Below are positions 1,062-35,038 of a stretch of DNA of 64,000 bases, in pieces. The notes beneath the pieces were generated by a model, which saw nothing but the letters and a program-made list of their open reading frames with translations, ran no database searches and had not been told where the DNA came from. How positions within the stretch are numbered: the first letter of the stretch is position 1; each line of letters starts with the position of its first letter. Both the position numbers and the translations under genes were made by a program. Source of the stretch: an uncultured Desulfobacter sp. (GTDB lineage Bacteria > Desulfobacterota > Desulfobacteria > Desulfobacterales > Desulfobacteraceae); assembly GCA_963665095.1 (NCBI GenBank), contig OY762069.1, positions 917,583 to 981,582 on the forward strand, in the 5' to 3' direction.

Positions 1062-1078
1062 TTACAAAAAGGAACTCA

Positions 1079-4568: not shown

Positions 4569-4570
4569 GG

Positions 4571-7483: not shown

Positions 7484-7608
7484 ACAAAACGCTGGAGCGG
7501 GACCAGGCTTACTGCGCGGCCTTTCGGGAGTTCCTGGTTCAGGAAAATTTAAACTTTTGTCGGAGTTTTTGGGGTTTAAAAGCCTGGCCCCTCAGCTCCC
7601 CGTTGTGG
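7484..7608 (+). repeat. integron attC site, long type A (attC3; its R'' is split by intron A and abutted by IS91-like copy 1)
   Basis: ACAAAACgctggagcgggaccaggcttactgcgcgg...ggtttaaaagcctggcccctcagctccccGTTGTGG. Confidence 0.75.
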
Positions 7609-7641
7609 GTTAAAAACCAACGTGATACAGAAAAAGACATA

Positions 7642-8350: not shown

Positions 8351-8417
8351 GCACAACAAAATAAGGATTAGTAACCGTGCTGAGGCACGAAGCTCGGTAC
8401 TAATCCTTTGGTTCAAG
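8351..8417 (+). repeat. attC-like hairpin (attC4, or the terminal hairpin of IS91-like copy 2)
   Basis: cACAACAAAATAAGGATTAGTA..loop..TACTAATCCTTTGGTTCAAG. Confidence 0.6.
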
Positions 8418-8663: not shown

Positions 8664-9749
8664 TTACCGGGGTTTGCCCCGGGATTCAGGTTTTACAAAG
8701 AAAATGAATTTCAAATCATGTCCGCAATGGCTGCATTTAATGCCGGGGATTGCAGGCTCCCGGATTTCAGTAAAAAGCGCAATAATGTCATGGATGAATG
8801 AGATCAGTTCACGGATTTTTTCAATGGGTAATGCACTGTTGGGATTAAGAAATCCATAATGCCGGATTTTCATAAATCCCTTGGGAAGAACATGTTGCAA
8901 GAACCTTCTGATAAATTCCATGGCATCCAGAGCCATGGTTTTCCATTTTTTCTTTTCACGATCCTTGTACGAAAATTTAATGACACCATTTTCAATGCTT
9001 TTGATGCGGTTATTGGAGATGGCCACCCGGAAAACATATCTTGAAAGATATCGCAGGCAATTTTGTCCCTGCCCCACTGATTGGCTGTCAATCACCCACT
9101 GCTGTTTCCAGACGGCCGGATCAATTTTGTTGAGCAGTCCGGCTTTTTTCATCGCATTCTTGAATTTGGCTTTGAAAATAATCTCCAAGGGTTTTGTGTG
9201 AACAAATAAATCCTGCCTGGAAGCAAGCCATAGGTTTTTACCGGATAAAGCACCACCGGGGATGATCAGATGTAAATGGGGGTGATACTGGAGCATGCCG
9301 CCCCATGTGTGGAGACCGGCCAGGTATCCAATTTGGTCCGATCCGACAAACCGCTTGTCTTGTGCTAATTTTTTCAATGCTTTATTGGTGCATGAAAACA
9401 GGGCGCTGTAGGTTTGTCTTTGATGTGATCTTACAACGTCCCGAAGACCTTGCGGCAGTGTGATCGTTAACAAAAAATAGTGAGTCGGCAGCAATTTTTT
9501 CATTTGCTGAACAAGCCATTGATCTGCTTTACTCTGTTGACAGTTGGGGCAATGGCGGTTGTCGCAGCAGCAGTGGATCAGATGCAGATTTTTGCAGTCG
9601 CTGCATTCATACACCATTGTACCAAAGGAGCCGCTTCGGCACTGAATGATATCCCGGATGGTTTTTTTATGGGCCTTGGGCATTCGATCCCCATAAAGTG
9701 CCATATATTGGGCGCCATACATCTGAAAGATTTTTTGAATGGCGCTCAT
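8664..9749 (-). CDS. IS91-family (Y2 HUH) transposase
   Basis: CDNRHCPNCQ, HTWGGMLQYHPHLHLIIPGG and RYLSRYVFRVAIS. Confidence 0.85.
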   Translation of the reverse strand: MSAIQKIFQMYGAQYMALYGDRMPKAHKKTIRDIIQCRSGSFGTMVYECSDCKNLHLIHCCCDNRHCPNCQQSKADQWLVQQMKKLLPTHYFLLTITLPQGLRDVVRSHQRQTYSALFSCTNKALKKLAQDKRFVGSDQIGYLAGLHTWGGMLQYHPHLHLIIPGGALSGKNLWLASRQDLFVHTKPLEIIFKAKFKNAMKKAGLLNKIDPAVWKQQWVIDSQSVGQGQNCLRYLSRYVFRVAISNNRIKSIENGVIKFSYKDREKKKWKTMALDAMEFIRRFLQHVLPKGFMKIRHYGFLNPNSALPIEKIRELISFIHDIIALFTEIREPAIPGIKCSHCGHDLKFIFFVKPESRGKPR

Positions 9750-10621
9750 GACAACACCCCCTGCATGACTTTGGAAACCCTGTCATTGGAATCAACCCGG
9801 GCCTGTGTGGTCACATGCAGATAAATCATGGTACTTTTAAGGGTTTTATGACCCAATATTTTTTGAACATGCCGTATGGGGATATTGGCTTCGAGCAGAT
9901 GAGTTGCATAGGCATGGCGGAATACATGAGGGTGGACATGTTTTTTAAACTTCATGCGTTTTAAAGTGGATCGTAAAACGCCTTGAACACCACTTTGGCT
10001 CACATGATTTTCGGCATATTGGGCATCTTTACCGCCATTGCGGCCCAGGGCAGGGAAAATCCATTTAGAATTGCGATGGGTTTTATAGTAGTCTCGCAAA
10101 GCCGACAGGGTTATTGGGGGTAAGGGGACGGTCCTGTCCCGGAAACCCTTTCCTCCGTGAATATGCACAAGTCCCCTGTCAGAAAGGATATCCTTGACCT
10201 GAAGCGTTGTTGCTTCCCTCAAACGCAGGCCCATGGAATATAAGGTCAAATAAAATGTATAACTTTGTACGGTGGGAAGGGCATATATAATTTTCCTGAC
10301 TTCCTCCAGGCTCAGAATAGTTGGTAAGGTCTCCTCGCGCTTCCATTGGATTTCGTTGAAAAGGTTCCAGGATCTGACCAGGGTTCTGCTGAAAAAATGT
10401 TGGATGCCGGAATAACTGATACGCAGTGTGGCTGCACTCCAGCCAAGTTCGTTTTGACAGCTAAGCCAATATTGACGCAGCTGTTCTTCGCTGATATCTT
10501 CTAAGGGTTGATTGTAAAACCGCTGCAGCTTTAAAACTGCGCCGGTATAGGATTGAATGCTGCGGTCAGCATATCCTGCTAACTGGAGGTCTTCTTTAAA
10601 ACGTTTGATTAATTTGCTCGT
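9746..10621 (-). CDS. tyrosine recombinase; full-length frame but no ATG/GTG/TTG at the expected start (ACG after an AAGGAAG RBS)
   Basis: The listed ORF (167 aa) starts at an internal TTG. The frame stays open upstream for a further 124 codons that encode the N-terminal core-binding domain (TSKLIKRFKEDLQLAGYADRSIQSY..). C-terminal motifs [15 protein letters not shown] and LGHKTLKSTMIYLH are present. Confidence 0.65.
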   Translation of the reverse strand, partial: TSKLIKRFKEDLQLAGYADRSIQSYTGAVLKLQRFYNQPLEDISEEQLRQYWLSCQNELGWSAATLRISYSGIQHFFSRTLVRSWNLFNEIQWKREETLPTILSLEEVRKIIYALPTVQSYTFYLTLYSMGLRLREATTLQVKDILSDRGLVHIHGGKGFRDRTVPLPPITLSALRDYYKTHRNSKWIFPALGRNGGKDAQYAENHVSQSGVQGVLRSTLKRMKFKKHVHPHVFRHAYATHLLEANIPIRHVQKILGHKTLKSTMIYLHVTTQARVDSNDRVSKVMQGVLS

Positions 10622-10746
10622 GGTATCTTCCTTTCTTCTTTAACCTTGTCGGGCGGAAGATACCGACCTGCAAACCGGTAATTAGAAGATACCATGAGCA
10701 ATGTAATTGAACAATGCTGCGAGGCGGAGCCTGCGCGTAGCGCTTA

Positions 10747-10871
10747 CTTGAACAAGCCGTTGCAGCCGATCCGGGGTTCTAGCGGCTTTTTGAAAGTGCT
10801 CGGTTTTCGAAAATGTTTGGCTTTTACAATCTGCTCGGCACAAGCCCCGGGCGGCTGAACTACACGTTATA
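10747..10871 (+). repeat. integron attC site, long type B (attC5)
   Basis: cTTGAACaagccgttgcagccgatccgggg...ccccgggcggctgaactacacGTTATA. The central region is shared with the site at 18712-18818. Confidence 0.75.
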
Positions 10872-13126
10872 GTGCGACACGATGTTGCATGATTGTATGT
10901 ATAGGAGGTAAATGTAAGACACTGAATATACTCGGTGTATCCCCACCGGTTCCCTAGGTGAGCGTGCTATCGTTGCGCTGATGACGGGGTGCGAAGCCTC
11001 ACCGACAATGTACCGAATCGGGTTTGAATGGCGACAGGAGAACCCCTCCGGAAATCCCATCCGGTTAAGGGCTAGGGTCGGACAATATGGCAAGATTAAT
11101 CGAAGAGCTTTAAGCGCCGTCAGTGAGCGCCTAACCTACTGGGATTAACAGGTTATATGTATACTTCCCTGCGTTTGTATACATGAACAGGATGCAAGTC
11201 TTCTAACTGCTTGCACGGGATCTTAAGTTTCATCGGCGTAGAGGCCTGCCTAAGTTGTCCATTAAGAGCAATCATGTGGAACGTGGAAACGTTGTCACTC
11301 CCCATGTGCAATACATGGAAAGCTAACCGCAAGGCAAGCCTGTGGAGGGGCAGCAGTAAGAATTCGGAAAAAAGCAAACGCCGTTTTGTAATGAAACGGA
11401 TAGAGCATGAAACATGGCTCACGTAAAACCCAAAACCTTCGATTTTGGAGACATGCGTGCAGACGTCCGATTGGTGTTGACTTGCGAGAGAATTTGGAGA
11501 ACCGCTTAAGATGGGAAAGCAAATGACGGCTTCGGCTGGTGCACCTGTCGACTCTGCTAAGAAATGGGCATCCATTGTTTGGAACAAAGCCCGGGCTGAA
11601 GTTAGAAGGCTGCAAATGCGTATCGCAAAGGCTGTAAAGGAAGAAAGATGGGGCAAAGTCAAAGCCCTTCAGTACTTACTTACTCATTCGTTCTACGCCA
11701 AGGCCTTGGCTGTCAAACGAGTGACCTCAAATAAAGGGAAAAAGACTCCAGGCGTAGACGGTGTTTTATGGAAAGGCGCCCGAGCCAAATGGCAGGCTGT
11801 TTTCAGCCTGCAAAGACGAGGTTATAGACCGCAACCGCTAAGGCGGATTTATATCCCCAAAAAAAACGGTAAGAAACGTCCTTTAAGCATTCCAACAATG
11901 CTTTGCAGAGCTATGCAGGCGCTGTTCAAGTTAGCCTTGGCCCCAGTAGCGGAGACCATAGGAGATCGTAATTCTTACGGCTTCCGTGAAGGCCGCAGTT
12001 GTGCAGATGCAATTGCAGCAGCGTTCAATGCACTCTCCAAGCCTAATTCGGCTACATGGATATTGGAAGCGGACATCAAAGGGTGTTATGACAACATCAG
12101 TCAGGAATGGATGTTGGAAAATATCCCCATGGACAAAGTCGTTCTTAAAAAGTGGTTGACGGCAGGGTATGTGGAAGACGGCAAGCTATACCCTTCGCGC
12201 AAAGGAACCCCACAGGGCGGGATTATCAGTCCCACCTTGTCGAATTTAACCCTCGACGGACTGGAAAAAGCCGTTCATGATGCAGTTCCCCGCCGATGCA
12301 GGGTTAATTTTGTTCGATATGCAGATGACTTTATCGTCACAGGCAAGTCCAAACGCCTGCTCGAAGAACAGGTCAAACCCGCAGTCGAAGCGTTTCTAAC
12401 TGAACGTGGTCTATCATTATCTGAAGAAAAGACCATGATCACGCATATAACAGACGGATTTACGTTCCTTGGCCAAACTTTTCGAAAAACCGGAAATGTA
12501 CTGCACATCACCCCGGCAAAAAAGGGAGTTCTCGCCTTTAAAGAAAAGCTCAGTGAACTGATCCATAAACATGCCGGCGGTCCATTGGAACCATTGGTCA
12601 AAAAGTTAAACCAGACCCTCCGGGGTTGGGGAAACTATCACCGGCACGTAGTCTCATCGGAAACATTTTCTCTTATTGATACGTTTGTTTACGAACAGCT
12701 GTGGAGAATGATTAAAAAGCGTCACCGGAAGAAATCCTCAAAATGGTTGAAAAACCGTTACTGGACTGACGGAAAACACAAGTGGATATTCACTGTCAAG
12801 AGCCGAAATAAAAAAGGGCCTTGCAGATATCACGTCATTCACCTAATTTCACTAGGGATAAAACGATATATCAAAATTAAAGCAGATGCAAATCCATATG
12901 ATCCCGAATACAGCTATTATTTCTGGCGTAGACGGAATCAAAAGGAGTCACGGTTACTCCCTACGCTGTCAGCCAGGGAATACCGCCAAACGCAAGCTGC
13001 ATGAGGTAAACAGCCGGGGCGTCCCACAAGGTCGTCCTTTATAAACGCTTGAGCCGTATGACGGGAAACTGTCACGTACGGTTCTTAGGGGGGAAAGGGG
13101 CAGAGATGCCCCTGACCTACCCGATC
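10872..13126 (+). mobile_element. group II intron, family 2a, full length, inserted on the top strand directly after attC5 R'
   Basis: The 5' end is GTGCGACACG. Domain V is GAGCCGTATGACGGGAAACTGTCACGTACGGTTC (13052-13085), followed by a domain VI hairpin, and the 3' end is ..CTACCCGATC. Confidence 0.85.
11511..13004 (+). CDS. group II intron reverse transcriptase/maturase
   Basis: GVDGV, PQGGIISP, VRYADDFIV and LRGWGNYHR motifs. Length is 497 aa. Confidence 0.9.
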   Translation: MGKQMTASAGAPVDSAKKWASIVWNKARAEVRRLQMRIAKAVKEERWGKVKALQYLLTHSFYAKALAVKRVTSNKGKKTPGVDGVLWKGARAKWQAVFSLQRRGYRPQPLRRIYIPKKNGKKRPLSIPTMLCRAMQALFKLALAPVAETIGDRNSYGFREGRSCADAIAAAFNALSKPNSATWILEADIKGCYDNISQEWMLENIPMDKVVLKKWLTAGYVEDGKLYPSRKGTPQGGIISPTLSNLTLDGLEKAVHDAVPRRCRVNFVRYADDFIVTGKSKRLLEEQVKPAVEAFLTERGLSLSEEKTMITHITDGFTFLGQTFRKTGNVLHITPAKKGVLAFKEKLSELIHKHAGGPLEPLVKKLNQTLRGWGNYHRHVVSSETFSLIDTFVYEQLWRMIKKRHRKKSSKWLKNRYWTDGKHKWIFTVKSRNKKGPCRYHVIHLISLGIKRYIKIKADANPYDPEYSYYFWRRRNQKESRLLPTLSAREYRQTQAA

Positions 13127-13159: not shown

Positions 13160-14632
13160 ATGGAAGAGCAAAAAACACATAGGCTGTGGGTTCCTGTTGA
13201 ATTCAGTCAAGAATGGCTTGAGTGTGATACTTCTACGATAGATGATATATCCCCTTCATGGATTGACAGAAGGGAAATCCTTCAAACTAACTCAAAAGAA
13301 TATCAGGAATTTATTACCGAACTCAAACGTGAACATGCAATTGAGACCGGAATTGTAGAACGAATGTACGATCTTGAAAAAGGCATAACTGAGACATTTA
13401 TCAAAAAAGGGTTTGTTGAATCATACATTAGTCATAATGATACAAACGTTCCAGTTCCGAAATTGCTTTCTCATTTATCCGATCATCTTGATGCAGTTGA
13501 TTTTGTCTTTGATGTAGTTAAAGAAAATAGAGATTTAACAATTGGTTTTATAAAAGAACTTCATGCACTCGTAACTCGTAACCAGGAGTATGCCGAAGGA
13601 AGAGACCAATTTGGCAGTAGAACTAAAATAGATCTGAGAAAAGGTGCTTTCAAAATCCTTGAAAATAATCCAACTCGTGAAGATGGAACTAAAATATTAT
13701 ATTGTCCACCTGATCATGTTCAGGCCGAAATGGATAATCTGATTTCTATTTACAATGATGCCGAGAATAAAAACATCCATCCATTAATTTGTGCTACCTG
13801 GTTTCACCATGCATTCACTACAATTCACCCATTTCAAGATGGCAATGGTCGTATTGCAAGACTAATTGCAAGTTTGATTTTGATTAAACATGGCCTTTTT
13901 CCTTTTACAGTTCTAAGAGAAGAGGCCAAAGCTAAATATATTGATGCTCTTGAAAAGGCCGATGCACATGAATTTCAACCTCTAATAGACTATTTTGCCG
14001 AAGTCCAAAAAAGACATATTGAAAAGGCTCTAAATCTAAAAGAGGTTTCAAGCTCATCATTTGATGAAGTAGCAGATATATTTTCAGGCAAGATTGAGAA
14101 TTGGCAAAAGAAAAAGGTTGCTGAGAGAGAGAAACTGCTTGATAAAGCCAGAATAGATGTTTTTAACTTTTGCCTCAAACATTTGAATCAGATTTCTGAT
14201 CAACTTAGCGCCAAACTCAATGGAAATGCGAACATTACTATTCAAAAATGTTCCCCAGATAAGGATGAAAGACAAGATTTTTATTATGGTCAAATAATTA
14301 AATACGCTAAGAAACATGATTACTATTTTAACAGGAATTTTCCAAAGGGTTGGTTAACTTTTAGAGTTGAATTAGCAGAAAATAAAAAATATCAACTTTG
14401 TGTTACTATCCACCACTATGGCTATGAGGATAGCACCTTAGCTATTGGAGCATTTCTTGAATATTTGATACCTCATGAAAGCAATGATCGAATAGACGAA
14501 GCCCTTCCCTTAGAAATTAAACCTCATGTTATTTCCCTGACTGGAGATATAATGACGAAAGAAAAGAACATCGCAGTTTTTATAAAAAATGCAGTTACCT
14601 TAACTATGGCTCAAATTGCAAGTGAACTATAG
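13160..14632 (+). CDS. Fic/DOC family protein (490 aa)
   Basis: Canonical Fic motif HPFQDGNGRIARL, with GGAG RBS upstream. Confidence 0.85.
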   Translation: MEEQKTHRLWVPVEFSQEWLECDTSTIDDISPSWIDRREILQTNSKEYQEFITELKREHAIETGIVERMYDLEKGITETFIKKGFVESYISHNDTNVPVPKLLSHLSDHLDAVDFVFDVVKENRDLTIGFIKELHALVTRNQEYAEGRDQFGSRTKIDLRKGAFKILENNPTREDGTKILYCPPDHVQAEMDNLISIYNDAENKNIHPLICATWFHHAFTTIHPFQDGNGRIARLIASLILIKHGLFPFTVLREEAKAKYIDALEKADAHEFQPLIDYFAEVQKRHIEKALNLKEVSSSSFDEVADIFSGKIENWQKKKVAEREKLLDKARIDVFNFCLKHLNQISDQLSAKLNGNANITIQKCSPDKDERQDFYYGQIIKYAKKHDYYFNRNFPKGWLTFRVELAENKKYQLCVTIHHYGYEDSTLAIGAFLEYLIPHESNDRIDEALPLEIKPHVISLTGDIMTKEKNIAVFIKNAVTLTMAQIASEL

Positions 14633-24102: not shown

Positions 24103-24498
24103 ATGAAACCAAATGAATTATCACCATGTTTTTGCACAAATGATGTAGATAACTGTCGCCAATTTTATACCAAATATTTTGCGGCAAAAATTATTTTTGA
24201 TTGTGGTTGGTACGTAAATTTAAGCTTTGGAGAAGATGGCCCAACGATCCAGTTCATGCAACCGCAAGAAGATATGCCAACATATGGCGGGACAGGCATC
24301 ACGCTCAATTTTAAAGTCGAAAATGTAGATGCTGAATATAATCGGTTAATTGATGCGGGCTTTCAAATAGCAATGCCTTTGGAAGACCATCCTTGGGGCG
24401 ATAGAGGATTTTCTGTAATTGATCCCATTGGTAATTCTGTTTATATCTATTCAGACAGAGAACCAACAGAAGAGTTTAAGCAATATTATAAGGGCTAA
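24103..24498 (+). CDS. VOC/glyoxalase (bleomycin-resistance-like) family protein (cassette)
   Basis: ..DNCRQFYTKYF .. HPWGDRGFSVIDPIGNSVYIY. Confidence 0.75.
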   Translation: MKPNELSPCFCTNDVDNCRQFYTKYFAAKIIFDCGWYVNLSFGEDGPTIQFMQPQEDMPTYGGTGITLNFKVENVDAEYNRLIDAGFQIAMPLEDHPWGDRGFSVIDPIGNSVYIYSDREPTEEFKQYYKG

Positions 24499-24624
24499 CA
24501 AAGCCGCTGAACCCGACCGGGCTTATCTGCACGGCGTTTTGAAGCTGGTTGGTTAATGAAATTTTGAACTTTTTACTGGAGCTGGTGTGGTTTTAACGCC
24601 CGGCCGGTTAGCTCCCCGTTGGGG
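24493..24624 (+). repeat. integron attC site, long type A (attC14)
   Basis: GGCTAACaaagccgctgaacccgaccgggctt...cgcccggccggttagctccccGTTGGGG. R'' overlaps the stop codon. Confidence 0.75.
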
Positions 24625-25630
24625 GTGCGACACGAGGTCGCATTATTGGCTGTTTGGCGGGCCAGTCGGTCCTGACCAAACCCGGCATTCTCCTGCCGGT
24701 ACCCTATGTGGCATGCGGTTACCGGTGCATCCGGCAACGGTGTGAAGCCCAACCGACAAAGTACCGAATTCCGCAGGTGCGGAAGGGGTGGAAGCCGTGA
24801 GGCGGATACCCTCCTGGAAGCCTCATTCCGGGTGAGGGCAAGGGTTTGAATGATATGGTCAAATTAATTGAATGTTCCGTAAGTACCGTCAGGGAGAACA
24901 AGCTAAAGAGGCTGGTAACCTTGGACCAAAAGGTGAGCGGTCAGGTTGCAGGTTTCTTAGCTGCCTGCACGTAGATGTTGCGCCGCCGGTGCTTAAGGAC
25001 AGGCCTAAGTCATCCATTAATTGGCAATAATGTGGAACGTGGAAAGTCGGCCATGTCCCTATGGATAAGATGATCCTCACCAAATGTCTGGCTGCAGGGT
25101 TTATGGAAAATGGTAAGCTCTTTCCAACAGGTCGGGGGACACCCCAGGGAGGCATTGCCTCCCCGATACTTGCCAACATGGTTCTGGACGGCATTGAAGA
25201 AACTGCTAAATCCGTTGCACCTGTCAGAGACCGGCGTAACGGTAAGGACATCAGTTCTAAAATCAACGTTGTCCGGTACACTGATGACTTCATCGTTACC
25301 GGTGCCACCCGGGAACTTCTTGAAGATAAGGTCAAACCGGCAATAATCAGCTTTCTTTCGGAACGGGATCTTTCCCTGTGATGCCAATCCTTTTGATCCG
25401 GAACACCAACAATACTTCCGGACAAGACGTGTGAAACCTAAGATGATCCCAGTCACAGCTGCCGAGGAAATATGTGATGGAATAACTGTAAATTTCAGTA
25501 TTGGCAAGGGAAAACAGTCGGGCGGCCCCGCAAGGCTTAGTCTTAGAAATGCTTGAGCCGTATGACGGGAAACTGTCATGTACGGTTCTGAGGGGGGAAA
25601 GGAACTGTAAAGTTCCTGACCTACCCGATC
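24625..25630 (+). mobile_element. group II intron, family 2b, degenerate (RT mostly deleted), inserted directly after attC14 R'
   Basis: GTGCGACACGAGGTCGC.. at the 5' end, and domain V GAGCCGTATGACGGGAAACTGTCATGTACGGTTC with ..CTACCCGATC at the 3' end. The uninterrupted paralogous junction GTTGTGG|GTTAAAAACC at 7602-7618 fixes both boundaries. Confidence 0.8.
25061..25381 (+). pseudogene. RT fragment (blocks 4-7 only) of intron family 2b
   Basis: TPQGGIASPILANMVLD .. VRYTDDFIVTG. The N- and C-terminal regions are missing. Confidence 0.75.
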
Positions 25631-26372: not shown

Positions 26373-27126
26373 CGCACAATAGGGGCAGGACTCCCCATTA
26401 CTGAGGAGCCCTCCCACACCATCCGGCATACGGATCTCGTACCAAGGCGGTTCGGCTGGTATGAATAAAATCAGTTGTAGGTTATCCCACCGATTTTATC
26501 GGGTTTTGGGCAAAGTCTTGCTATGGAAATTTCGGCCACTGCCGCATTATTCCCATAAAATCCTTTTACTTACTCACCACAACCATTTACCCAAGCCATT
26601 CGGCCCGGGTACCGTTCAGGCCTTCATCGGGGTGAGGCCTCCGGGTGTACTTCTCCCATGCGGTCAGGACCAGTTACCCGGCCCTCAGCCAATCCGGCAC
26701 ATGGGAGATCTCCCGGGGTAAACACGTGTCTTTCAGTACGTGAATGCCGGATTTACGGACATACCCTGTAATGGATAGAGGACTTCACCTTGTTGTGCAG
26801 GCTCGTCCAGGTATGTGCGCCTTATATCCGATTCCTGTACGTCATCCCGTACCTTCGTGGTACCTTGCCTCAGCAAGGCGGCTTCCTCCCGAAGCACCGT
26901 CACCGGTACCCCGTTGCACTACCACTACACCCTTCGCCTCCATCCGGCTGGGTCTAAGACTTGCCAAAGGCATTGAAATCGTTTACGTTTGACTCACTTT
27001 TAAGAACACGTGCCGTGCCCGGCACACACAAAACGCTTCAGGTCGAAAGACCTTGGTTTCTGAAAAGAATTTAATTCGGGGAAGTCCTTGGTTTTAGTCT
27101 CCGGGCGGCTGAGCTCCCCGTTCTCG
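26373..27126 (+). repeat. integron attC site (attC15), R'' interrupted by an ORF-less family 1 intron
   Basis: cgcaca|[intron]|ACAAAACgcttcaggtcgaaagaccttgg...ccgggcggctgagctccccGTTCTCG. Confidence 0.7.
26379..27027 (-). mobile_element. group II intron, family 1, ORF-less (649 bp)
   Basis: It is collinear with intron A at both ends. Domain IV keeps the RT start codon and the last codons, but ~1.2 kb of ORF is replaced by ~110 nt. The flanks give TTTTGT|TGTGCG on the bottom strand. Confidence 0.75.
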
Positions 27127-28191
27127 GTGCGACACGAGGTCGCATTATTGGCTGTTTGGCGGGCCAGTCGGTCCTGACCAAACCCGGCATTCTCCTGCCG
27201 GTACCATAGGTGGCATGCGGTTCCCGGTGCATCCGGCAACGGTGTGAAGCCCAAACGACAAAGTACCGAATTCCGCAGCTGCGGAAGGGGTGGAAGCCGT
27301 GAGGCGGATACCCTCCTGGAAGCCTCAATCCGGGTGAGGGCAAGGGTTTGGATGATATGGTCAAAGTAGTTGAATGTTCCGTAAGTACCGTCAGGGAGAA
27401 CAAGCTAAAGAGGCTGGTAAGCTTGGACCAAAAGGTGAGCGGTCAGGTTGCAGGTTTCGGAACTGGCTGCACGGAGATGTTGCGCCGCCGGTGCTTAAGG
27501 GCAGACCTAAGTCATCCATAAATTGGCAATAATGCGGAACGTGGAAACCCCGTATCTTCGCCGGGAGTATTCGGCAGGTGAAACCGTAAGGCACACTGAT
27601 GGAGGTGCGGGCGTAAGATCCAGGAAAAAGCGAATGCCGTCTTGTAATGAGATGGATACGGATTGAGGCGTATATCCCCAACATTACCCGGCCCGAAAGG
27701 GAACTGACGTCCTGCGGGTGTGACTACAGACACACCCGGGCAGGTGTTTCTTTGTGAGAGAGTTTGGAGAATCTTTGAGGATGGGAAAGCAAATGACGGC
27801 AATGGCTGGTGCGCCCATCAGCAGCTTTACGCTGTTAAAAGACTGTAGATACGTATCGCAAAGGTTGTTAAAGTAGCACACGGGATATACGCCAGAGGTT
27901 CTTTCAAAAGGATGCATTTTCTTTTGACTCGGAAAAAGAACAGTACTTTCCGAGAGAATGCTCAAGGACATATGCTATGAATTAACTGTAAATTTCATTA
28001 TTGTCAGGGCCGTCTTGAAAATGCAGCCAAATCCCCGGTTTGAAAATGTATGTTCTTAGCTGGTTTTTCTTCTCTTAAAAATCAAATTTAAAAATTTCGT
28101 CTTCTTCATTTTTTTCCTTTCTTTGCCCTCTGCTTTTTTCCGTACATACTGATCTTATTCATGTCTGATTTGAATCGGAGGCAATATGTAG

Positions 28192-28758
28192 ATGGGACTA
28201 CTCAAGAAAAGAAGGTGCCGAAATTGTAGAAGATTATTCGCTCCTAATCCAAGAAATATAGACTCTCAAAAATACTGTTCCAGATCTGAGTGCAGAAAAG
28301 CCAGCAAAAGGTGCAGCCAGAAAAAATGGCTGAACAAGCCTGAAAATCGAAACTACTTTTGTGGGCCTGCCCATGTTGAACGTGTTCAGGAATGGAGAAA
28401 GAAGAATCCCGGATATTGGAAGAAGACCAAAAGCCCAGATACGTTACAAGACTCGATATGTCCCCAACAGGCTGAAAATAAACAGGATTCAACGCAATTC
28501 ATGGACAATGCGTTACAAGATTTCTTACGGGCGCAACCTCCTGTCATTATAGGGTTAATCGCCAACTTTACAGGCAGTGCGTTACAAGATGACATCGCTT
28601 CCACGCTCCTTCGTATGAAAAAATACGGGCAAGACATTTTATGTTCACAACCCCAAAAAGAAGGAGAGCAAAATGATTGCAAAGGCCCCCATTTTACCAT
28701 CCAGGGTTCGAAAAACACCCCAAAGCTTCAGTTGGATCGATCATCGCCTGGTGCGTGA
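28192..28758 (+). CDS. basic Cys-rich protein of unknown function inside IS21 (upstream of istA)
   Basis: ORF only. Contains CRNCRR .. YCSRSEC. Confidence 0.4.
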   Translation: MGLLKKRRCRNCRRLFAPNPRNIDSQKYCSRSECRKASKRCSQKKWLNKPENRNYFCGPAHVERVQEWRKKNPGYWKKTKSPDTLQDSICPQQAENKQDSTQFMDNALQDFLRAQPPVIIGLIANFTGSALQDDIASTLLRMKKYGQDILCSQPQKEGEQNDCKGPHFTIQGSKNTPKLQLDRSSPGA

Positions 28759-29059
28759 ACGGCACATTGACAGGTGTACACACTCCCAGTCCGCCCTATA
28801 TCTGTTTCTGGTGTGTGTGGCCGACAGTCAAGGCATCAGCTACTATGGAGATAAGGCGATCATGGATCGGCTGTGCATGGATTCTGATGGCCTGAAGACA
28901 GCACGTTCCGGGTTAATACAGAATGGGCTGATTGCCTGGCAGAGACCTATTTACCAGGTGCTTGCCCTTGACCCTGCTCCTGGTAAATCAAAACGGCACG
29001 GCTCCATGCTGCGTCTTTCAGATATTCTAAAAGCAGCAGCGGAGGGCAACCATGATTGA
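28673..29059 (+). CDS. hypothetical protein (possible winged-helix) inside IS21, overlapping the istA start
   Basis: Strong RBS AAGGAGAG before ATG 28673. Its stop overlaps istA ATG 29052. Confidence 0.5.
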   Translation: MIAKAPILPSRVRKTPQSFSWIDHRLVRERHIDRCTHSQSALYLFLVCVADSQGISYYGDKAIMDRLCMDSDGLKTARSGLIQNGLIAWQRPIYQVLALDPAPGKSKRHGSMLRLSDILKAAAEGNHD

Positions 29060-29888
29060 TTACGAAACCTATGTTCAAATCAGAAATTACTTTACCCGAG
29101 ACGGCCTGACATACAGCCAGATTGCCAATGCCCTTGATCTGGACCCCAGGACAGTTGCCAGGTGGGCCAACCTGAAAAGGTACCAGCCCAGACAGTCAGC
29201 CCCCAGAGAAAGCAAGCTTGATCCGTATAAGAACGCCATCCTGCATATGCTTGAAAAACATCCCTACAGTTCCCGCCAGATATTTCAACGAATCACCCAG
29301 GATGGTTTTGCCGGGGGCATCACCATTGTTGAGGATTATGTCAGGAAGGTGCGGCCGCCCAAAACAAAGGCGTATTTGAAACTGAGTTTTGCTCCGGGTG
29401 AAGCTGCCCAGGTGGACTGGGGTTCTTATAGTACAGTAAGGGTGGGCAACACGACCCGGCGGTTGAGCTTTTTTGTGATGGTGATGTGCCACAGCCGCAT
29501 GATGTACGTTGAGTTCACGGTCTCCCAGACCATGGAGCATTTTTTAGGCTGCCACCAGAATGCATTTGAGTTTTTTGGAAAGGTGCCGGAAAAGGTCATG
29601 GTGGACAATCTCAAATCCGCTGTTCTAAAAAGACTGCTGGGGAAAGCCCCGGTCTTCAACCCCAGATACCTTGATTTTGCAGATTATTACGGATTTACAA
29701 TTGTTCCCTGTAATGTGCGCAAGGGTAATGAAAAAGGCCGGGTTGAAAATGCTGTGGGCTATGTCAAAAAGAATCTGCTCAACGGTCTTGAAATCCCTGA
29801 TTTTAAGATCATGGAGCCCACCTGCAAACACTGGCTTGATACTGTCGCCAATGTCAGAACCCACGGAGAGACCGGTCAAAAGCCCGCA
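29052..29888 (+). pseudogene. istA: IS21 transposase IstA, N-terminal part (HTH + DDE core), interrupted
   Basis: MIDYETYVQIRNYF..LTYSQIA.. with the catalytic region ..QVDWG.. / ..MVDNLKSAV.. . The frame ends at the insertion (..HGETGQKPA). Confidence 0.85.
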
Positions 29889-30026
29889 TGAGAATGATCA
29901 CAAAAAATCATGGAAAAATTAAAGATAATTTGCAAGATATGCCAGGGATGAGGCAGAAGCTCCCCCGTTTATCTCGCAAATAATCAATGGAACTTCTGCC
30001 CCTATTACCCTAACAGGGCAGGAGAT

Positions 30027-30602
30027 ATGCTATCAGAACTTATTAAAAACAAAAATCTTTTTTTCCATCTTTACGAAATCGATAAAAATACAGCAAAACA
30101 GTACAGACAGTTGCCTTGTCCGCATTGTGGAGGCCCCTTATATTTCAGCAATTACATGCGCAAGCCCCGGGGAGAGCCTGAGGGCGTGCCGGAGGAATTC
30201 TTTATTCAGTTCAGCCTATGTTGTGGAACCGAAGGGTGTCGCAAAAGATTGATGCCGCCGTCCTGCCGTTTTCTGGGGAGAAAAGTCTACTGGTTTGCAG
30301 TTATTCTGTGTGTTTTAACAGACTGGCAAAATACCAATGAAAAAATCACCGTTTATGATTTGTCCATACGAACTGGCATTAGCCGGAACACAATAAACCG
30401 CTGGCTTGCCTTTTTTCAGGATACATTTCCAGTGAGCCGAACCTGGCGAAGGCTTCGGGGGCAGATATCCGCTGGTGTCAGTAACAGCCGTCTGCCGTCA
30501 AGTTTCATCAATTATTGCCGGGCGGTGAAATCCAACGCCGAAAACGCACTTGTATCAAGCCTGATAATCTTATCAGGCGGGTCCAAAATCAGGGCCGGAT
30601 AA
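30027..30602 (+). CDS. zinc-ribbon/HTH accessory protein of the nested element
   Basis: CPHCGG .. CCGTEGC, and ISRNTINRWL (HTH-like). Confidence 0.45.
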   Translation: MLSELIKNKNLFFHLYEIDKNTAKQYRQLPCPHCGGPLYFSNYMRKPRGEPEGVPEEFFIQFSLCCGTEGCRKRLMPPSCRFLGRKVYWFAVILCVLTDWQNTNEKITVYDLSIRTGISRNTINRWLAFFQDTFPVSRTWRRLRGQISAGVSNSRLPSSFINYCRAVKSNAENALVSSLIILSGGSKIRAG

Positions 30603-30708
30603 TCTCGCGCAGAGGATGAACATAGACAAATATATGCAGGCTGTTTTACCACCTGATTTCAGACGTTGATCCGAAATTTTAACCTGAAATTAAAAAGGAG
30701 CCTGATTT

Positions 30709-32154
30709 ATGAGTGGTAAAACACAGCACCCGGCAGACCTGTGGGCATTATTTCGCTTTTCGGTTATCGGCGGTTTACTGGCACGCCCTCCGGCAAAGGG
30801 AGAGTTGCAAAATGAACTGACCCGGCTCGCAGGTCAAATCTATTCTCATCCTGTGACGAACAAACCGACCTGTTTTCATTTTTCCACAATTGAGGCCTGG
30901 TATTACAGGGCAAAAAATTGCCAGGACCCAATTCTGGCTCTGGGCCGTAAAGTTCGTTCAGATATGGGCAAATCCACAGCATTGAATGCTGAATTGATCC
31001 GCCTTCTTGGTGTCCAGTACAACACTTATCCGCAATGGAGCTATCAGCTTCATTGCGACAACCTGGCAGCTGAAATCGCTGAACAGGGCCTGTGTGAGAA
31101 TCCGCCGTCCTATGCAAGTGTGAGAAGGCGTATGGTTGAACGGGGTTGGAGAAAAAAGGCTTCCAAGAACAAAAATCAAACATCCGGACAGAAATCAGCT
31201 TTTAAGCGATTAGAAACGTATGAAGTCCGTAGTTATGAAACCGAAAACATCCATGAATTATGGCATCTGGACTTTCACGAATGCAGCAGGCGCGTGGTGG
31301 ACGAAAAAGGTCAGTGGCATACGCCCAAGGCATTGTGCATTCTTGATGATCGCTCCCGTCTGTGTTGTCATATTCAATGGTATTTGAATGAAACGGCAGA
31401 GGTTTTGATCCACGGCTTGTCCCAGGCGTTTTACAAAAGAGGGCTTCCCAGAGCCTTGATGACAGATAATGGTTCTGCCATGATTGCTCATGAAACCGGC
31501 AACGGACTTAAACGATTGGGCGTCAGTCATGAGACCACGTTGCCATACTCGCCCTATCAAAATGGGAAGCAGGAAGCCTTTTGGGGTACACTTGAAGGCC
31601 GTTTGATCGCCATGCTGAGCCGGATGGATTCTTTGACCCTGGTATATTTAAATCAGGTCTCCCAGGCCTGGATCGAGATGGAATACAACAAGTCAACCCA
31701 TGATGAAATTCATATGTCGCCATTGCAATGCGCCCTTGACGGCAAGGATGTGTCACGTCCTGCACCGGAACCTGAACAGCTTCAATTTTCGTTTACAGCC
31801 TGTGAATCCAGAAAACAGCGTCTGTCCGATGGTACCATCTCTTTGATGGGCATCCGGTTTGAAATCCCTTCACGGTTTAATCATATCCAGCGTCTTCATG
31901 TCTGTTTTTGCTCCTGGGATAAATCGGTTGCCTGGCTGATAGATAAACGAACCGGAAATAAGCTTGCCGCAATTTATCCCCAGGACAAGACAAAGAATGC
32001 TTCAGCAATCCGTCGTATCAAATCCACTCCGGATGAAATTAACCCTGGCCATGAAACCCTGTCCGGATCAGAACCGGCCCTGCTTAAAAAGCTCTTGTCC
32101 GATTATGCAGCAACCGGAATGCCTTGTGCCTACTTGCCAATGGAGGAAAAGTGA
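30709..32154 (+). CDS. DDE transposase, integrase-core (rve) type, TniA/MuA-like
   Basis: D in LWHLDFH, D in LMTDNGS, and E in YQNGKQEAFW. Confidence 0.8.
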   Translation: MSGKTQHPADLWALFRFSVIGGLLARPPAKGELQNELTRLAGQIYSHPVTNKPTCFHFSTIEAWYYRAKNCQDPILALGRKVRSDMGKSTALNAELIRLLGVQYNTYPQWSYQLHCDNLAAEIAEQGLCENPPSYASVRRRMVERGWRKKASKNKNQTSGQKSAFKRLETYEVRSYETENIHELWHLDFHECSRRVVDEKGQWHTPKALCILDDRSRLCCHIQWYLNETAEVLIHGLSQAFYKRGLPRALMTDNGSAMIAHETGNGLKRLGVSHETTLPYSPYQNGKQEAFWGTLEGRLIAMLSRMDSLTLVYLNQVSQAWIEMEYNKSTHDEIHMSPLQCALDGKDVSRPAPEPEQLQFSFTACESRKQRLSDGTISLMGIRFEIPSRFNHIQRLHVCFCSWDKSVAWLIDKRTGNKLAAIYPQDKTKNASAIRRIKSTPDEINPGHETLSGSEPALLKKLLSDYAATGMPCAYLPMEEK

Positions 32155-32978
32155 TGAACAGCAAACGATTATTGGCTTATTATGGATTGAAGTACAATCC
32201 TTTTTTACCAAATATTCCTGTGGACTCATTATGGCATCCACCCCGGATGGAGGCATTTATTACACGCCTTGAAAATATGACCATGAACGGTGGATTTGCA
32301 TTAATCGCCGGTGAACCCGGTCTTGGCAAATCCAAGACACTACAGGCGATTGCCCATCAGCTTGGCAAGCTTGATGAAGTCGTTGTCGGCGTTATGGAGC
32401 GCCCCCAAAGCAGCGTGGCCGATTTCTATCGGGAAATGGGGACACTGTTTGGTGTCAATTTGAGTCCGGCCAACCGTTACGGAGGGTTCAAAGATCTGCG
32501 GCAACGATGGAAAAATCATATTAAAACAACCCTGTTCAGACCCGTCCTGCTCATTGATGAGGCTCAGGAAATGCTTACCGGATGCCTGAATGAGCTTCGG
32601 TTGCTCAACAGTATGGATTTTGACTCCCAGAATTTATTGACCACCATTATCTGTGGTGATACCCGGCTGCCGGAACGGTTCAGAACCAGTGCATTGGTAG
32701 CCCTGGGGAGTCGACTCCGGTTCCGGTTAAAATTGGATCCTTATACCCGGGAAGAATTGTTGGATTATATAGCGCATTGCCTAAATCAGGCCGGAGCTCC
32801 TCAACTCATGACAAAACCTTTAATCACCGCTTTGGTAGAGCACTGTACAGGAAACTTACGGGTCCTCAATAATATGTCGGCAGAACTGCTTGAAGTGGGC
32901 GTTCAAAGAGAGCTGCCGCAACTGGATGAGAAACTTTTCATAGAGCTTTTTTCACTGAAACCGTCGCCAACCAGATAA
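32154..32978 (+). CDS. AAA+ ATPase, TniB/ExeA-like transposition helper
   Basis: Walker A is GEPGLGKSK and Walker B is VLLIDEAQ. Its start overlaps the transposase stop (TGATG). Confidence 0.8.
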   Translation: MNSKRLLAYYGLKYNPFLPNIPVDSLWHPPRMEAFITRLENMTMNGGFALIAGEPGLGKSKTLQAIAHQLGKLDEVVVGVMERPQSSVADFYREMGTLFGVNLSPANRYGGFKDLRQRWKNHIKTTLFRPVLLIDEAQEMLTGCLNELRLLNSMDFDSQNLLTTIICGDTRLPERFRTSALVALGSRLRFRLKLDPYTREELLDYIAHCLNQAGAPQLMTKPLITALVEHCTGNLRVLNNMSAELLEVGVQRELPQLDEKLFIELFSLKPSPTR

Positions 32979-32989
32979 GAGGTATAAAA

Positions 32990-33232
32990 ATGACAATCAA
33001 TGAAACACAACTTGAAAAAACAATGGCTGAAATTGTCGACGAGCTGGGCAATCTGGTCATGGAGTTGATCCTTGTCAGTTTAAAAAAAATAAACTCGGAA
33101 AATCATCTTTTGACAGAATTGCTGGAGATCAAACAAGAGGAACAAAGAGAAAATGAATTTTATGGTTTTGGTGAAACGGAGCCGGGACATCCTGGGGAGG
33201 AAACCCGGCAAGGGATAGCCAAAAGCAGGTAG
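32990..33232 (+). CDS. small acidic hypothetical protein
   Basis: ORF with a GAGG RBS. Its 3' part (YGFGETEPG) is also conserved, as DNA, after the second TniB-like gene at ~47940. Confidence 0.35.
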   Translation: MTINETQLEKTMAEIVDELGNLVMELILVSLKKINSENHLLTELLEIKQEEQRENEFYGFGETEPGHPGEETRQGIAKSR

Positions 33233-33432
33233 CATTGAATAATGCGCCGGGGGAAGCGGGGTTGACCTGCTTCCCCTTTCTGTATTATTCAAGCTTTCCT
33301 GCTCATGCCTTAAAAAACCCAATAAAATCAGTCGGAGCGCAGCGACATCTGCTAATCATTGAAAATACAGTTATGCCTTTCCCTGATTTATCCTGATTGT
33401 CGCTCCATTGATTATCGTGCTTCCTCTCAGCA

Positions 33433-34071
33433 GAGATGTATGCCCTGGAATTGCCCCACCTATACCCTCTGCCGTCAGAACCCTATGATATCGGTGTGGT
33501 AAAGCAGGTACGGGCTTCAAGACAGTACAGGGTAGTCATCGATACAAATGCTTACACAGTACCCGCCCAGCTGGCAGGGGTGGCTTTGACTGCCAAGCTT
33601 TACCCTGATCGGATCTGCTTTTACCATGAAGACAAGTTGGTTGCCCGCCATGTCAGATCCTATGGCCGCAAAAACGACCTTGAAGATCCTGATCACTCTA
33701 AAATCCTTTTGAGCCAGCGCAAAAAGGCCAGAGACCAGGCAATTTATATGCGTTTTTTAAGCCTCTCTGACAAGGCCCGGGAGTATTACAGGCAATTGCA
33801 GAACAGGCGGCTTAACGCCTCCCATCATGTACGGCAAATCGTGGCCTTGAGTGAAATCTACTCCCGGGAACAAGTTGCCATGGCCATTGAAGATGCCTTT
33901 AAGTTCTCTGCATTCTCATGTGAATACATCGCCAACCTCCTTGAGCAGCGGGTTCGGTCTCCCCAGGAGCCCGGAGCCCTGCATGTTACACATAAAGCAG
34001 ATTTACTGAACCTGACAATCCAGGAGCCTGATCTTAATATTTATACCGCCATAGGAGATAAAAATGCCTGA
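33433..34071 (+). pseudogene. istA: IS21 transposase IstA, C-terminal part
   Basis: It continues ..EMYALELPHLYPLPSEPYD.. in frame with 29052..29888 once the nested element is removed. Confidence 0.8.
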
Positions 34072-34798
34072 TCTTGAGAAATGCCTGTCCCACTTAAAAC
34101 TACCTTATATCAGGGAAAACTATGAGTCAGTGGCTACCCTGGCTGCCCAGAAGCAATGGAGCCACGTTCAATATCTATCAGAGCTTGCCAGGCATGAATC
34201 ACTACTGCGCCATGATAAAACCATCCAGCGCCGTATCCGTATGGCCAAGTTCCCGGTAATCAAAACCCTGGACCAGTTCAACTGGTCATGGCCCAGAAAA
34301 ATCAATCAGGCTCAGATCCAGAATCTGTTCAGACTCAAGTTCATTGAAGAAAAGGGTAACATTATCGTGATCGGCCCGGTCGGTGTTGGGAAAACACATA
34401 TTGCGACTGCTTTAGGTTACCAGGCCTGCCTGAAAAACCATACGGTTCTGTTCTCTTCTGCCATTGATATCGTCAACAATCTGGTGGCAGCCCAGAAGGC
34501 GGGTCAGTTAAAGCAGGAACTGAGAAAATACCTCAAGCCAACTTTGTTGATCATGGATGAACTGGGCTACCTGCCCATTGACAAGATTGGGGCAGACCTG
34601 TTGTTCCAAATTATCAGTCAGCGCTATGAGCAAGGAGCCATCATAATAACCACAAACCGGGTGTTCAAAGATTGGCCGGAGATCTTCAACAATGACATGA
34701 CATTAACATCAGCTTTGCTGGACAGGCTTCTTCACCACACCGAGCCTGTGGTCATTGAGGGTAAGAGTTTTAGAATGAAAGATGTGACGGAAGAATAA
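34064..34798 (+). CDS. istB: IS21 helper ATPase IstB
   Basis: Walker A is GPVGVGKTH and Walker B is LLIMDELGY. It overlaps the end of istA. Confidence 0.9.
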   Translation: MPDLEKCLSHLKLPYIRENYESVATLAAQKQWSHVQYLSELARHESLLRHDKTIQRRIRMAKFPVIKTLDQFNWSWPRKINQAQIQNLFRLKFIEEKGNIIVIGPVGVGKTHIATALGYQACLKNHTVLFSSAIDIVNNLVAAQKAGQLKQELRKYLKPTLLIMDELGYLPIDKIGADLLFQIISQRYEQGAIIITTNRVFKDWPEIFNNDMTLTSALLDRLLHHTEPVVIEGKSFRMKDVTEE

Positions 34799-35038
34799 CA
34801 AAGCCGAGGCCGGTCTACATGCATCTGGAGGCCGGCCCTTTAATCGCCTACATTTTTAAACCGGGAGATTTATGACATGTTCACGCCCCGCCTGACAATT
34901 ATTGCTGAAACAACCGGACGGCCCCGCAAGGCTTAGTCTTAGAAATGCTTGAGCCGTATGACGGGAAACTGTCACGTACGGTTCTGAGGGGGCCTGGGGT
35001 AGATAACTACCCCCGGCTACCCGATCCTAAAAACACCA

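Follow-up and report, generated by a model that had tools for sequence, protein, structure and literature searches.

How does a group II intron come to stand, in the orientation of the gene cassettes, at the very end of the integron recombination sites (attC) of a cassette array? The question is raised by a stretch of 64,000 nucleotides from an uncultured Desulfobacter sp. (assembly GCA_963665095.1, contig OY762069.1, positions 917,583 to 981,582), referred to below as the window, in which GTGCGACACG is found exactly three times, at 10872, 24625 and 27127, and only on the + strand. An earlier reading made from the sequence alone had taken these positions as the 5' ends of three intron copies, each starting with GTGCG directly against an attC-like GTT core (the R' box), and this has been confirmed: the bases before GTGCG are GTTATA, GTTGGGG and GTTCTCG, respectively. 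The common 3' side that it had read, ...CTACCCGATC, is likewise present in 3 of 3 copies. The copies very probably belong to a clade of chloroplast-like, endonuclease-less introns that homes to the R' core of attC on its top (cassette-sense) strand.

Three intron copies at the ends of attC-like sites

The copies and their parts are the following (here and below, a slash inside a sequence marks the point of insertion):

10872..13125, + strand: intron copy 1, 2254 nt, full length and apparently intact, with 5' GTGCG and 3' ...CCTACCCGAT
10931-11072, + strand: domains D1-D4 of copy 1 (RF02012, 83 bits)
11193..11215, + strand: hairpin of copy 1 carrying exon-binding site 1 (EBS1), stem TGCAAG with CTTGCA, 11-nt loop TCTTCTAACTG, located by alignment, a table of loops and exons, and a permutation test
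11511..13004, + strand: open reading frame (ORF) of copy 1 for a reverse transcriptase (RT)/maturase of 497 aa, YADD present, no endonuclease domain
13049..13125, + strand: domains V and VI (DV/DVI) of copy 1 (RF00029, 68.7 bits, model positions 1-77)
13126, + strand: C, most likely the first base of the 3' exon of copy 1, completing the split R' core as GTTATA/C
24625..25629, + strand: intron copy 2, 1005 nt, ribozyme domains kept, RT ORF for the most part deleted
24681-24839 and 25553-25629, + strand: Rfam matches of copy 2 (RF02012, 91 bits, and RF00029, 72 bits)
27127..35025, + strand: intron copy 3, RT ORF degenerate, split by ~7 kb of transposon DNA
27183-27341 and 34949-35025, + strand: Rfam matches of copy 3 (RF02012 and RF00029)
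~28010-34905: transposon DNA within copy 3 (Pfam: two rve, AAA_22, a Mu-transposase C-terminal fragment and IstB)

Each GTGCG start is followed 55-60 nt downstream by a match to the Rfam model of group II domains D1-D4 (RF02012, 83-91 bits), and each copy closes with a match to the DV/DVI model (RF00029, 69-72 bits; 13049-13125, 25553-25629 and 34949-35025). In copy 1, DV carries the catalytic AGC within GAGCCGTATG..., DVI has its bulged A at 13119 and the 3' end reads ..GAT. The hallmarks of a group II intron were found together, namely the 5' GTGCG, GAGCCGUAUG... in DV, the bulged A at 13119 and a ..GAU end, and copy 1 adds the RT/maturase ORF, of which copies 2 and 3 retain only remnants. 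These are three copies of one mobile group II intron, one of them intact and two decayed. Copy 1 holds all the elements required for splicing and, as judged from them, would be expected to splice. The transposon DNA that splits copy 3 shows short inverted matches at its edges (attattgtcagg and cctgacaattat), and an IS66 transposase is encoded beyond it at 36609-38234.

The sites that precede the introns belong to a family of repeats of ~120 nt with eight copies in the window, all on the + strand. They were delimited as follows, together with the introns of opposite orientation that share them:

2628-2745, 7486-7604, 10754-10869, 18708-18815, 21928-22041, 24501-24620, 27043-27122 and 38804-38923, + strand: copies of the repeat (nhmmer)
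10746..10871, + strand: attC-like site before copy 1 (nhmmer match 10754-10869, hairpin fold, consensus fold)
24493..24624, + strand: attC-like site before copy 2, R' GTTGGGG (24618-24624)
27043..27126, + strand: 3' part of the attC-like site before copy 3, R' GTTCTCG (27120-27126)
7486..7618, + strand: unoccupied R' end of a paralogous attC with the start of a paralogous RelE cassette, GTTGTGG/GTTAAAAACC at 7602-7618
5' ends near 7471, 27022 and 38799, - strand: antisense class C introns, RT ORF 5663-7003(-)

The repeats run from ..AAC through a spacer, a box with extra bases, a long stem, the partner box and a spacer of 5-6 nt to GTTnnnn, which matches the canonical attC layout of RYYYAAC, spacer, L'' with extra bases on the 5' arm, L', spacer and GTTRRRY. 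Their AAC...GTT hairpin gives a consensus fold with 25 pairs, 8 of them with compensatory changes, and the sites measure 72-132 nt, within the 57-141 nt known for attC. The site before copy 1 comprises R'' (..TTGAAC), a spacer, L'' with an extra G on its 5' arm, the stem, L' (GGCTGAAC), the spacer TACAC and then GTTATA (10866-10871), the first six bases of R'. In the site before copy 2 the stop codon of the ORF 24103-24498 lies inside R'' (GGCTAAC), and the 5' part of the site before copy 3 is occupied by an antisense class C intron. The eight repeats lie within 2.6-39 kb, each after + strand ORFs, as in an array of ORFs with their attC sites; the ORFs between them, + strand as well, include RelE/antitoxin pairs and a Fic protein. 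This cassette array is heavily interrupted by introns and insertion sequence (IS) elements.

The three - strand introns begin with GTGTGCCGGGCACGG right after ...GTTTTGT or ...ATTTGT, and comparison with the intact repeat of a metagenomic contig (L042) places them at TTGT/T of the AAC-side (R'') core. It has been published that group IIC-attC introns insert at TTGT/T in R'', antisense to the cassettes (PMC7923331). Because the antisense introns occupy this site on the - strand, the + strand is the top, cassette-sense strand. The sense orientation first reported holds accordingly: the introns lie in the top strand at the R' end of attC and point the same way as the cassette ORFs.

At the 3' boundary, the end at ..GATC (13126) given by the sequence-only reading is probably one base too long. 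The comparisons place the ends most likely at 13125, 25629 and 35025 (...CCCGAT in copy 1), with the following C as exon position +1, and several observations favour this GAT end. The Rfam DV/DVI consensus finishes in 'Au', matched by the GAU that ends at 13125. Among 30 introns that could be read at both ends, those that begin with G end in ..GAU, ..GAC or ..UAC (17/17) and those that begin with U or C end in ..GGU (13/13); in group II introns the first base interacts with the penultimate one, and the covariation fits this interaction only when the intron is taken to close with the U or C. The position after GAT can be C, T, G or A, even among copies that are 97-99% identical (T in locus L001, C in window copy 1 (W1) and in L042), and when it is taken as exon the core consensus is restored (GTTATA/C, GTTGGG/C, GTTAGG/C, GTTAG/GC). 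The 3' end of UHB.I2, a published intron discussed below, was likewise drawn ..GU by Sonbol and Siam (PMC7923331).

With these ends, copy 1 splits the R' 7-mer after its sixth base (6+1, GTTATA/C), and copies 2 and 3 follow 7 nt of it. That the lineage inserts exactly after the 7-mer is true of copies 2 and 3; the notion fails for copy 1, which lies inside the 7-mer, and for the clade described below, in which the usual splits are 5+2 and 6+1. The ligated exons of copy 1 are predicted to read ...ACACGTTATA/CAATAGAT, or in longer form ...CTACACGTTATA/CAATAGATATG. An intron-free paralogous junction had also been offered as proof of precise insertion. The two junctions do match, that of the RelE/antitoxin paralogue, GTTGTGG/GTTAAAAACC (7602-7618), and the occupied one, GTTGGGG, intron, ...GTTAAAAACC (24618-25640). 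With the GAT end, a one-base indel separates the filled GTTGGGG/CGTTAAAAACC from the paralogous GTTGTGG GTTAAAAACC. Because this 1-nt indel is needed and the two cassettes are diverged copies, the empty site is good only to about +/-1 nt and leaves the exact site unproven. A search for further copies of the paralogous cassette start, made to settle the 1-nt boundary, found none.

Probable recognition of the R' core across a clade

What directs the introns to R' can be read from their EBS1. This site was found through an alignment of 13 introns, as a hairpin ~320 nt into the intron with the stem TGCARG and CYTGCA and a loop of 11 nt that contains TAAC. Introns standing after GTTxx have the loop NNNCTAACGTN, whose positions 4-9 pair with CGTTAG, and those standing after GTTxxx have the loop TCTNNTAACTG, in which the same positions pair with GTTANN. 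Loop positions 4-9 always face the last six exon bases, and between the 5+2 and the 6+1 class TAAC shifts by one base within the loop, matching the shift in the insertion point. In the window, the EBS1 of copy 1 (TCTAAC, 11202-11207) forms 5 of 6 pairs with the exon GTTATA, the loop TTTCTTAGCTG of copy 2 pairs with GTTGGG(G), and the loop TTTCGGAACTG of copy 3 lies opposite GTTCTCG. Copies 2 and 3 are nearly identical, yet they differ both in EBS1 (CTTAGC versus CGGAAC) and in the exon (GTTGGGG versus GTTCTCG).

This pairing was assessed over 42 distinct intron-exon pairs, which average 5.4 of 6 possible base pairs (18 perfect, 23 with one mismatch). Shuffling the exons lowers the mean to 3.4, and 5.4 was reached in 0 of 5000 shuffles; within the 6+1 class alone 0/5000 shuffles reach the observed pairing, the 5+2 class showing little variation. 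Compensatory changes of EBS1 and exon are found in GCAAAC:GTTTGC (L110), GCTAAC:GTTAGC (L109), CATAAC:GTTATG (L002, L063, L083) and TATAACG:CGTTAT (L128), as well as in a retargeted relative (L103) whose loop TCGTTGCA matches the non-attC exon TGCAATGA. These sequence comparisons indicate that EBS1 pairs with the last six exon bases, within (C)GTTRRR, and the compensatory changes across relatives support it. The earlier proposal that EBS1 and EBS3 could be identified against the attC core is borne out for EBS1 (11202-11207), which pairs with R'; an EBS3 column was not found in 30 sequences. The idea that the intron is placed downstream of the attC hairpin is not supported: the R' core with which it pairs forms the hairpin's base, and in most relatives the intron splits this core.

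The same rule holds far beyond the window. An RT scan of genomes returned 41 loci, and all relatives with at least 68% RT identity and a 5' end on the contig begin right after GTT plus 2-3 bases (for example GTTATG/GTGCG, GTTATC/GTGCG, GTTAG/TTGCG, GTTAT/TCGCG, GTTAGC/GTGCG and GTTAGA/GTGCG), in hosts that include Desulfobacterota, Thiotrichaceae and Aminicenantes. Relatives at ~48% RT identity use another site, ...CCAA/GTGCG. Metagenome contigs were scanned with a pattern internal to the intron (GCGACACGNNGTYGC...GTGYGAAGCC), hence blind to the exons, which gave at least 120 loci; the counts of junctions and leaves that follow are among the matches listed. Together with the earlier loci and the window, these provide at least 66 distinct junctions with GTT 5-7 nt upstream. 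With GTT as the anchor, 66 of them line up to show a common GC-rich stem, GSTGAK box (-12 to -7) and variable spacer of 5-6 nt, with C before GTT in 54/66, a consensus that by its sequence is the 3' half of attC.

In a neighbour-joining tree built from the first 300 nt of the introns, one clade of 66 leaves has GTT at -5 to -7 in 54/66, compared with 4/56 leaves outside it. The survey for junctions of attC core and intron that the sequence-only reading had called for has in this way found them widely. The remaining 12 leaves of the clade comprise four with GTT 1-2 bases closer, four with a one-base variant of the core and four with unrelated sites. A neighbour-joining tree of the RT gives the same clade, with UHB.I2 at its base, and its sister branches have other targets, as is the case for a 569-aa RT/maturase from an E. 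coli plasmid. The clade is large and widespread, being common in sediment and marine metagenomes. A scan of viral contigs gave no matches, and a plasmid search returned only relatives of ~54% identity with other targets, so the attC-associated clade appears to be absent from sequenced plasmids.

Two clade members stand at non-attC sites, L103 (~529, - strand) after ..TGCAATGA and L145 (~815, - strand) after ..CAACGGTA. Their EBS1 loops are altered to match, TCGTTGCA and TTCCGTTG, respectively, and from these sequences they look like natural retargeting events within the clade.

The pairing with EBS1 is not sufficient by itself. GTTA[TG]N occurs 171 times in the window, counting both strands, and all three copies stand at attC 3' ends; because the 6-mer is far too common to explain this exclusive location, a feature beyond EBS1 must presumably contribute.

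Five of the eight R' cores are free of a sense-strand intron, at 2743 (GTTATGT), 7602 (GTTGTGG), 18812 (GTTATGT), 22038 (GTTATGC) and 38920 (GTTAACT), and several of them fit the EBS1 of copy 1 no less well than the site that copy 1 occupies. The sense-strand intron has not saturated the array.

Intron class, mobility and competing explanations

The sequence-only reading had framed the introns as resembling group IIC, and this is contradicted by the RT, the ribozyme and the target pairing. The RT of copy 1 matches Pfam RVT_N, RVT_1 and GIIM and NCBIfam TIGR04416 (356 bits, cutoff 300). Its best match in the PDB is the T.el4h RT (6ME0, 547 bits, residues 10-481 of the window RT against residues 13-485 of the 562-aa chain), compared with 131-133 bits for class C RTs (GsI-IIC, 7UIM) and 131-141 bits for LtrA and class C RTs taken together. 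No HNH or other endonuclease domain was detected in the 497-aa protein by Pfam, and the alignment to T.el4h reaches no further than residue 485 of 562. Upstream of the ORF, the ribozyme part measures 639 nt, far more than in class C introns, and EBS1 is 6 nt long instead of 3-4. The RT is also 53% identical to that of UHB.I2, assigned to the chloroplast-like class 1 (CL1) by its authors (PMC7923331), and ~54% identical to RT/maturases on proteobacterial plasmids, the 569-aa one of the E. coli plasmid among them. By sequence, the sense introns are chloroplast-like (CL1-type RT, IIB-type ribozyme) and endonuclease-less, CL1 being assigned by proxy and not from a reference tree. As to the RT phylogeny proposed earlier, the PDB scores indicate a place outside class C, and the neighbour-joining RT tree puts the protein in one clade with UHB.I2. 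It had also been suggested that the sense introns form a lineage separate from the antisense introns of the window, and this is upheld, the RT of the latter scoring 481 bits against the GsI-IIC RT, which marks it as class C.

How would such an intron home? The intron RNA would pair EBS1 (loop positions 4-9) with the six bases at the 3' end of the upstream exon (CGTTRR or GTTRRR, and TTRRRN for copies 2 and 3) and would reverse-splice into the top strand, splitting the core 5+2 or 6+1 or landing after all 7 nt. In the absence of an endonuclease, cDNA synthesis could be primed by the nascent strand at the replication fork, by analogy with RmInt1, in which case the top strand would be the lagging-strand template. 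The GC skew of the + strand is positive across the entire window, and this weakly fits such an arrangement. The further attC feature presumably needed may be the folded or single-stranded state, the L' arm or contacts with proteins.

Integron recombination has its crossover point at G/TT of R'. Since the intron is located 3' of this point, it belongs to the downstream cassette, as the sequence-only reading had correctly seen, and the integron integrase IntI would move the two together. Co-transcribed with the cassettes, the intron could splice out and spare the expression of the downstream cassette. Introns that are 97-99% identical precede different 3' exons and genes, Fic in the window versus an AAA_15-family ATPase with DUF4276 in L042, which argues for spread by retrohoming and not only by cassette shuffling.

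Could the same picture arise from a lineage resembling class C, to which the top-strand attC, once folded, would serve as a terminator-like stem-loop, with insertion just beyond it and exactly where the R' 7-mer ends? In copies 2 and 3 the intron is indeed preceded by 7 nt of R', no EBS2:IBS2 pairing (IBS, intron-binding site) was found, which resembles class C, and the exclusive attC location suggests a structural cue. The RT is chloroplast-like and not class C, however, the 5' ribozyme part has 639 nt, the 6-nt EBS1 pairs with R', a core that forms the hairpin base instead of lying beyond the hairpin, and the clade splits the core 5+2 or 6+1; this explanation is very unlikely. It is less probable still that the introns have no attC specificity and only hitchhike, having entered once at the 5' end of a cassette and been spread by IntI-mediated shuffling. 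Although an intron 3' of G/TT would indeed be carried by IntI along with its downstream cassette, near-identical introns precede unrelated 3' exons and genes, the upstream exon bases covary with EBS1, including the C and G of CGTT that lie 5' of TT (5+2 class), and the window has no integrase.

The identity of the target itself can be questioned, for the repeats might be some other structured intergenic repeat that ends in GTT, of the repetitive extragenic palindrome (REP) type or a transposon end. There is no IntI in the window, attC was identified by architecture and not with a curated model, and IS91-type elements with hairpin ends are interspersed. Against this stand the canonical attC layout of 72-132 nt with a stop codon in R'', the cassette-like content (RelE/antitoxin, Fic), all on the + strand, and the class C introns at the published IIC-attC site TTGT/T of the same repeats. 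UHB.I2, a member of the same clade, is located at an attC predicted by IntegronFinder (PMC7923331 supplement), and junctions from many taxa share only the attC-type arms. We give a non-attC repeat as little credence as mere hitchhiking, and homing to the R' core of attC is kept as the explanation.

Several observations weigh against homing to R' all the same. The sole empty-site comparison is one base off the favoured 3' boundary. Over half of the EBS1:IBS1 pairings have one mismatch, and no EBS2:IBS2 pairing was found in the introns compared, where a candidate d2-like loop is conserved (UUCCCNGNGUU) and is not complementary to the exons. No EBS3:IBS3 pairing emerged either, no intron column complementing exon position +1 in more than 59% of 30 sequences. 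The metagenome pattern demanded the conserved 5' motif of the clade, with at least 120 loci and the matches listed, and both trees are neighbour-joining only. The identity of attC was derived from architecture and not from a dedicated attC model (IntegronFinder). In a strict hairpin test, which required complementary arms and AAC at the right place, 24/61 junctions passed, compared with 6/109 control CGTTAK sites on the same contigs; 6/6 of the passing controls resemble unoccupied attC sites from these arrays. No integron integrase was found in the window at the IntI cutoffs. Finally, we infer splicing, mobility, priming and cassette co-transfer, all four, from the sequences.

The wider array and known systems

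The remaining features of the array are:

13160-14632, + strand: Fic-domain cassette ORF after copy 1 (Pfam Fic)
17999-18250 and 20242-20495 (D1D4-6) and 18636-18710 (DV/DVI), + strand: Rfam matches of a third group II lineage

The tyrosine recombinases at 4571-5632 and 9746-10249 lie below the IntI cutoffs (170 versus 265 bits) and beside IS91 transposases. No IntI was detected in the rest of the window, nor in the other loci retrieved, and an exact-protein look-up of one window gene, made to extend the context towards IntI, gave no match on record. Because it has no integron integrase, the array within the window is at best a cluster of attC sites lacking integron integrases (CALIN). In the right third of the window the genes are ordinary chromosomal ones, such as those for an aminotransferase, an NhaD antiporter and hydrogenase-type subunits. 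Simple attC scans, by arm complementarity or by constrained folding of AAC...GTT pairs, gave too many false hits or were insensitive, and GC-rich non-attC flanks fold equally stably; the scans were superseded by the nhmmer family search of the window, a GTT-anchored position table and the strict architecture test with controls. When each upstream attC was compared with its own contig by BLAST, further copies were found in only 5/27 loci, since attCs share structure rather than sequence.

The third group II lineage lies on the + strand at ~17924-18711 and ~20167-21932, with boundaries ambiguous by 1-2 nt. Its copies begin with GTGCCCAGATAAATCC after an attC R'', spacer and L'' (..tatAACaaaacgctgctc and ..gatAACaatacgctcgtc) and end ..GCCTTTACCCGGAAG, followed by the attC stem, which locates them on the top strand, within the 5' arm of attC. 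No ORF is present in copy A. Three intron lineages occupy three different positions of one attC family. IS91-family transposases paired with an Xer-like tyrosine recombinase, which is not an integron integrase, recur at 3468-5632(-), 8664-10249(-) and 14819-15814(+), and the same pairing is found in unrelated metagenome contigs (L042 7828-9494, L096 1325-3284); hairpins ending in GTTCAAG (3164-3217 and 8355-8417) adjoin two of these pairs. Cassette-like genes of a defence type lie near the introns, a KAP NTPase in the window (977-2437, +) and DUF4365 and an AAA_15/AAA_21 ATPase with DUF4276 in L042 (2006-7636), and toxin-antitoxin pairs are also among the cassette-like genes.

A broader proposal, on which we are evenly divided, holds that the attC sites of environmental integrons are a niche in which at least three group II lineages have their own positions, that the chloroplast-like clade would be an obligate attC homer needing both EBS1 and the structure or single strand of attC, and that with it attC targeting would have arisen a second time, independently of class C, in an intron with two layers of mobility. 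If confirmed, attC targeting would have evolved at least twice, and a natural intron without effect on cassette expression would exist, in contrast to the antisense IIC-attC introns. The annotation of integrons would have to reckon with cassette boundaries and sizes inflated by introns of 1-2 kb, and a compact, retargetable recognition of 6 nt plus structure might be of use for targetrons. The sense-strand clade would also offer a direct test for single-stranded attC top strands in vivo. The pairing that explains the site can be read straight from the sequences.

The closest solved RT is that of T.el4h from Thermosynechococcus, an intron that, like those of the window, has its EBS1 in an 11-nt loop. 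T.el4h has a C-terminal endonuclease domain and a long sequence-specific site read by EBS1, EBS2 and EBS3, whereas the window introns have no endonuclease domain, no detectable EBS2 or EBS3 pairing and a structured recombination site as target. A C-terminal DNA endonuclease domain is common though not universal in CL1/IIB1 introns, and Pfam finds none in the window RT. RmInt1, of class D, is presented in one source as a model for reverse splicing into the lagging-strand template with nascent-DNA priming (PMC8914252); it is endonuclease-less like the window intron, belongs to another class, reads an IS-element target with EBS1, EBS2 and EBS3, and serves here as a mechanistic analogy only.

It has been held that attC targeting is a property of class C and that every other lineage homes to ordinary sites (Zimmerly and Semper 2015, PMC4424553). 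The IIC-attC introns, S.ma.I2 and Ge.s.I1 among others, insert, as these works are cited in later sources, at TTGT/T in R'', antisense to the cassettes (Quiroga 2008, Leon and Roy 2009, via PMC7923331 and PMC4424553). The window sense introns share with them the specialization on attC, a core at the base of the hairpin, the lack of an endonuclease domain and the lack of an evident IBS2. They differ from the bottom-strand insertion at TTGT/T in R'' with an IBS1 of 3-4 nt in being sense, in the top strand and at R', with a 6-nt IBS1; the IIC-attC introns moreover have a class C RT and a small ribozyme, and they do not splice from cassette transcripts.

Introns in the sense orientation have been reported before, and the remark in the sequence-only reading that this lineage looks unusual is overstated, in that two cases precede it (PMC7923331); the kind itself is barely described. 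One case, as cited there, comes from Enterobacter cloacae, where a class C intron occupies the attC top strand in an integron (Rodriguez-Martinez et al. 2012, via PMC7923331); it resembles the window introns in its position on the attC top strand and its cassette orientation and differs in being, by that account, of class C and a single unusual case. The other is UHB.I2, a IIB1 intron with an endonuclease-less CL1 RT on a soda-lake integron/CALIN contig (Sonbol and Siam 2021, Mob DNA 12:8, PMC7923331), a report that also notes a class E fragment pair in a Halorhodospira CALIN. UHB.I2 lies in cassette orientation immediately after an attC and has 2201 nt and a 500-aa RT; it begins with TTGCGACATG and ends ..CCCGGT, and the attC predicted by IntegronFinder overlaps the intron start by 2 nt (PMC7923331 and supplement). 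This 2-nt overlap corresponds to the 5+2 geometry of the clade, and the UUGCG start and ..GGU end are those of many members. UHB.I2 resembles the window introns in size and falls into the same RT clade at 53% RT identity, and its 11-nt loop, TGTAGAACGTG, predicts an exon that ends in CGTTCT. It differs as a single case on a deep branch of the clade, the window copies having GUGCG and ..GAU and standing at a 6+1 split or after 7 nt. Its authors found poor exon conservation among homologues and only speculated on a role of the top-strand hairpin, and neither pairing with R' nor clade-wide specificity is described in their report (PMC7923331). A literature search, with subscription journals outside it, found no description of clade-wide specificity or of an EBS1:R' pairing. 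There appears to be one published precedent of this kind, UHB.I2, and what appears new is that it belongs to a large and widespread clade with a readable rule of recognition.

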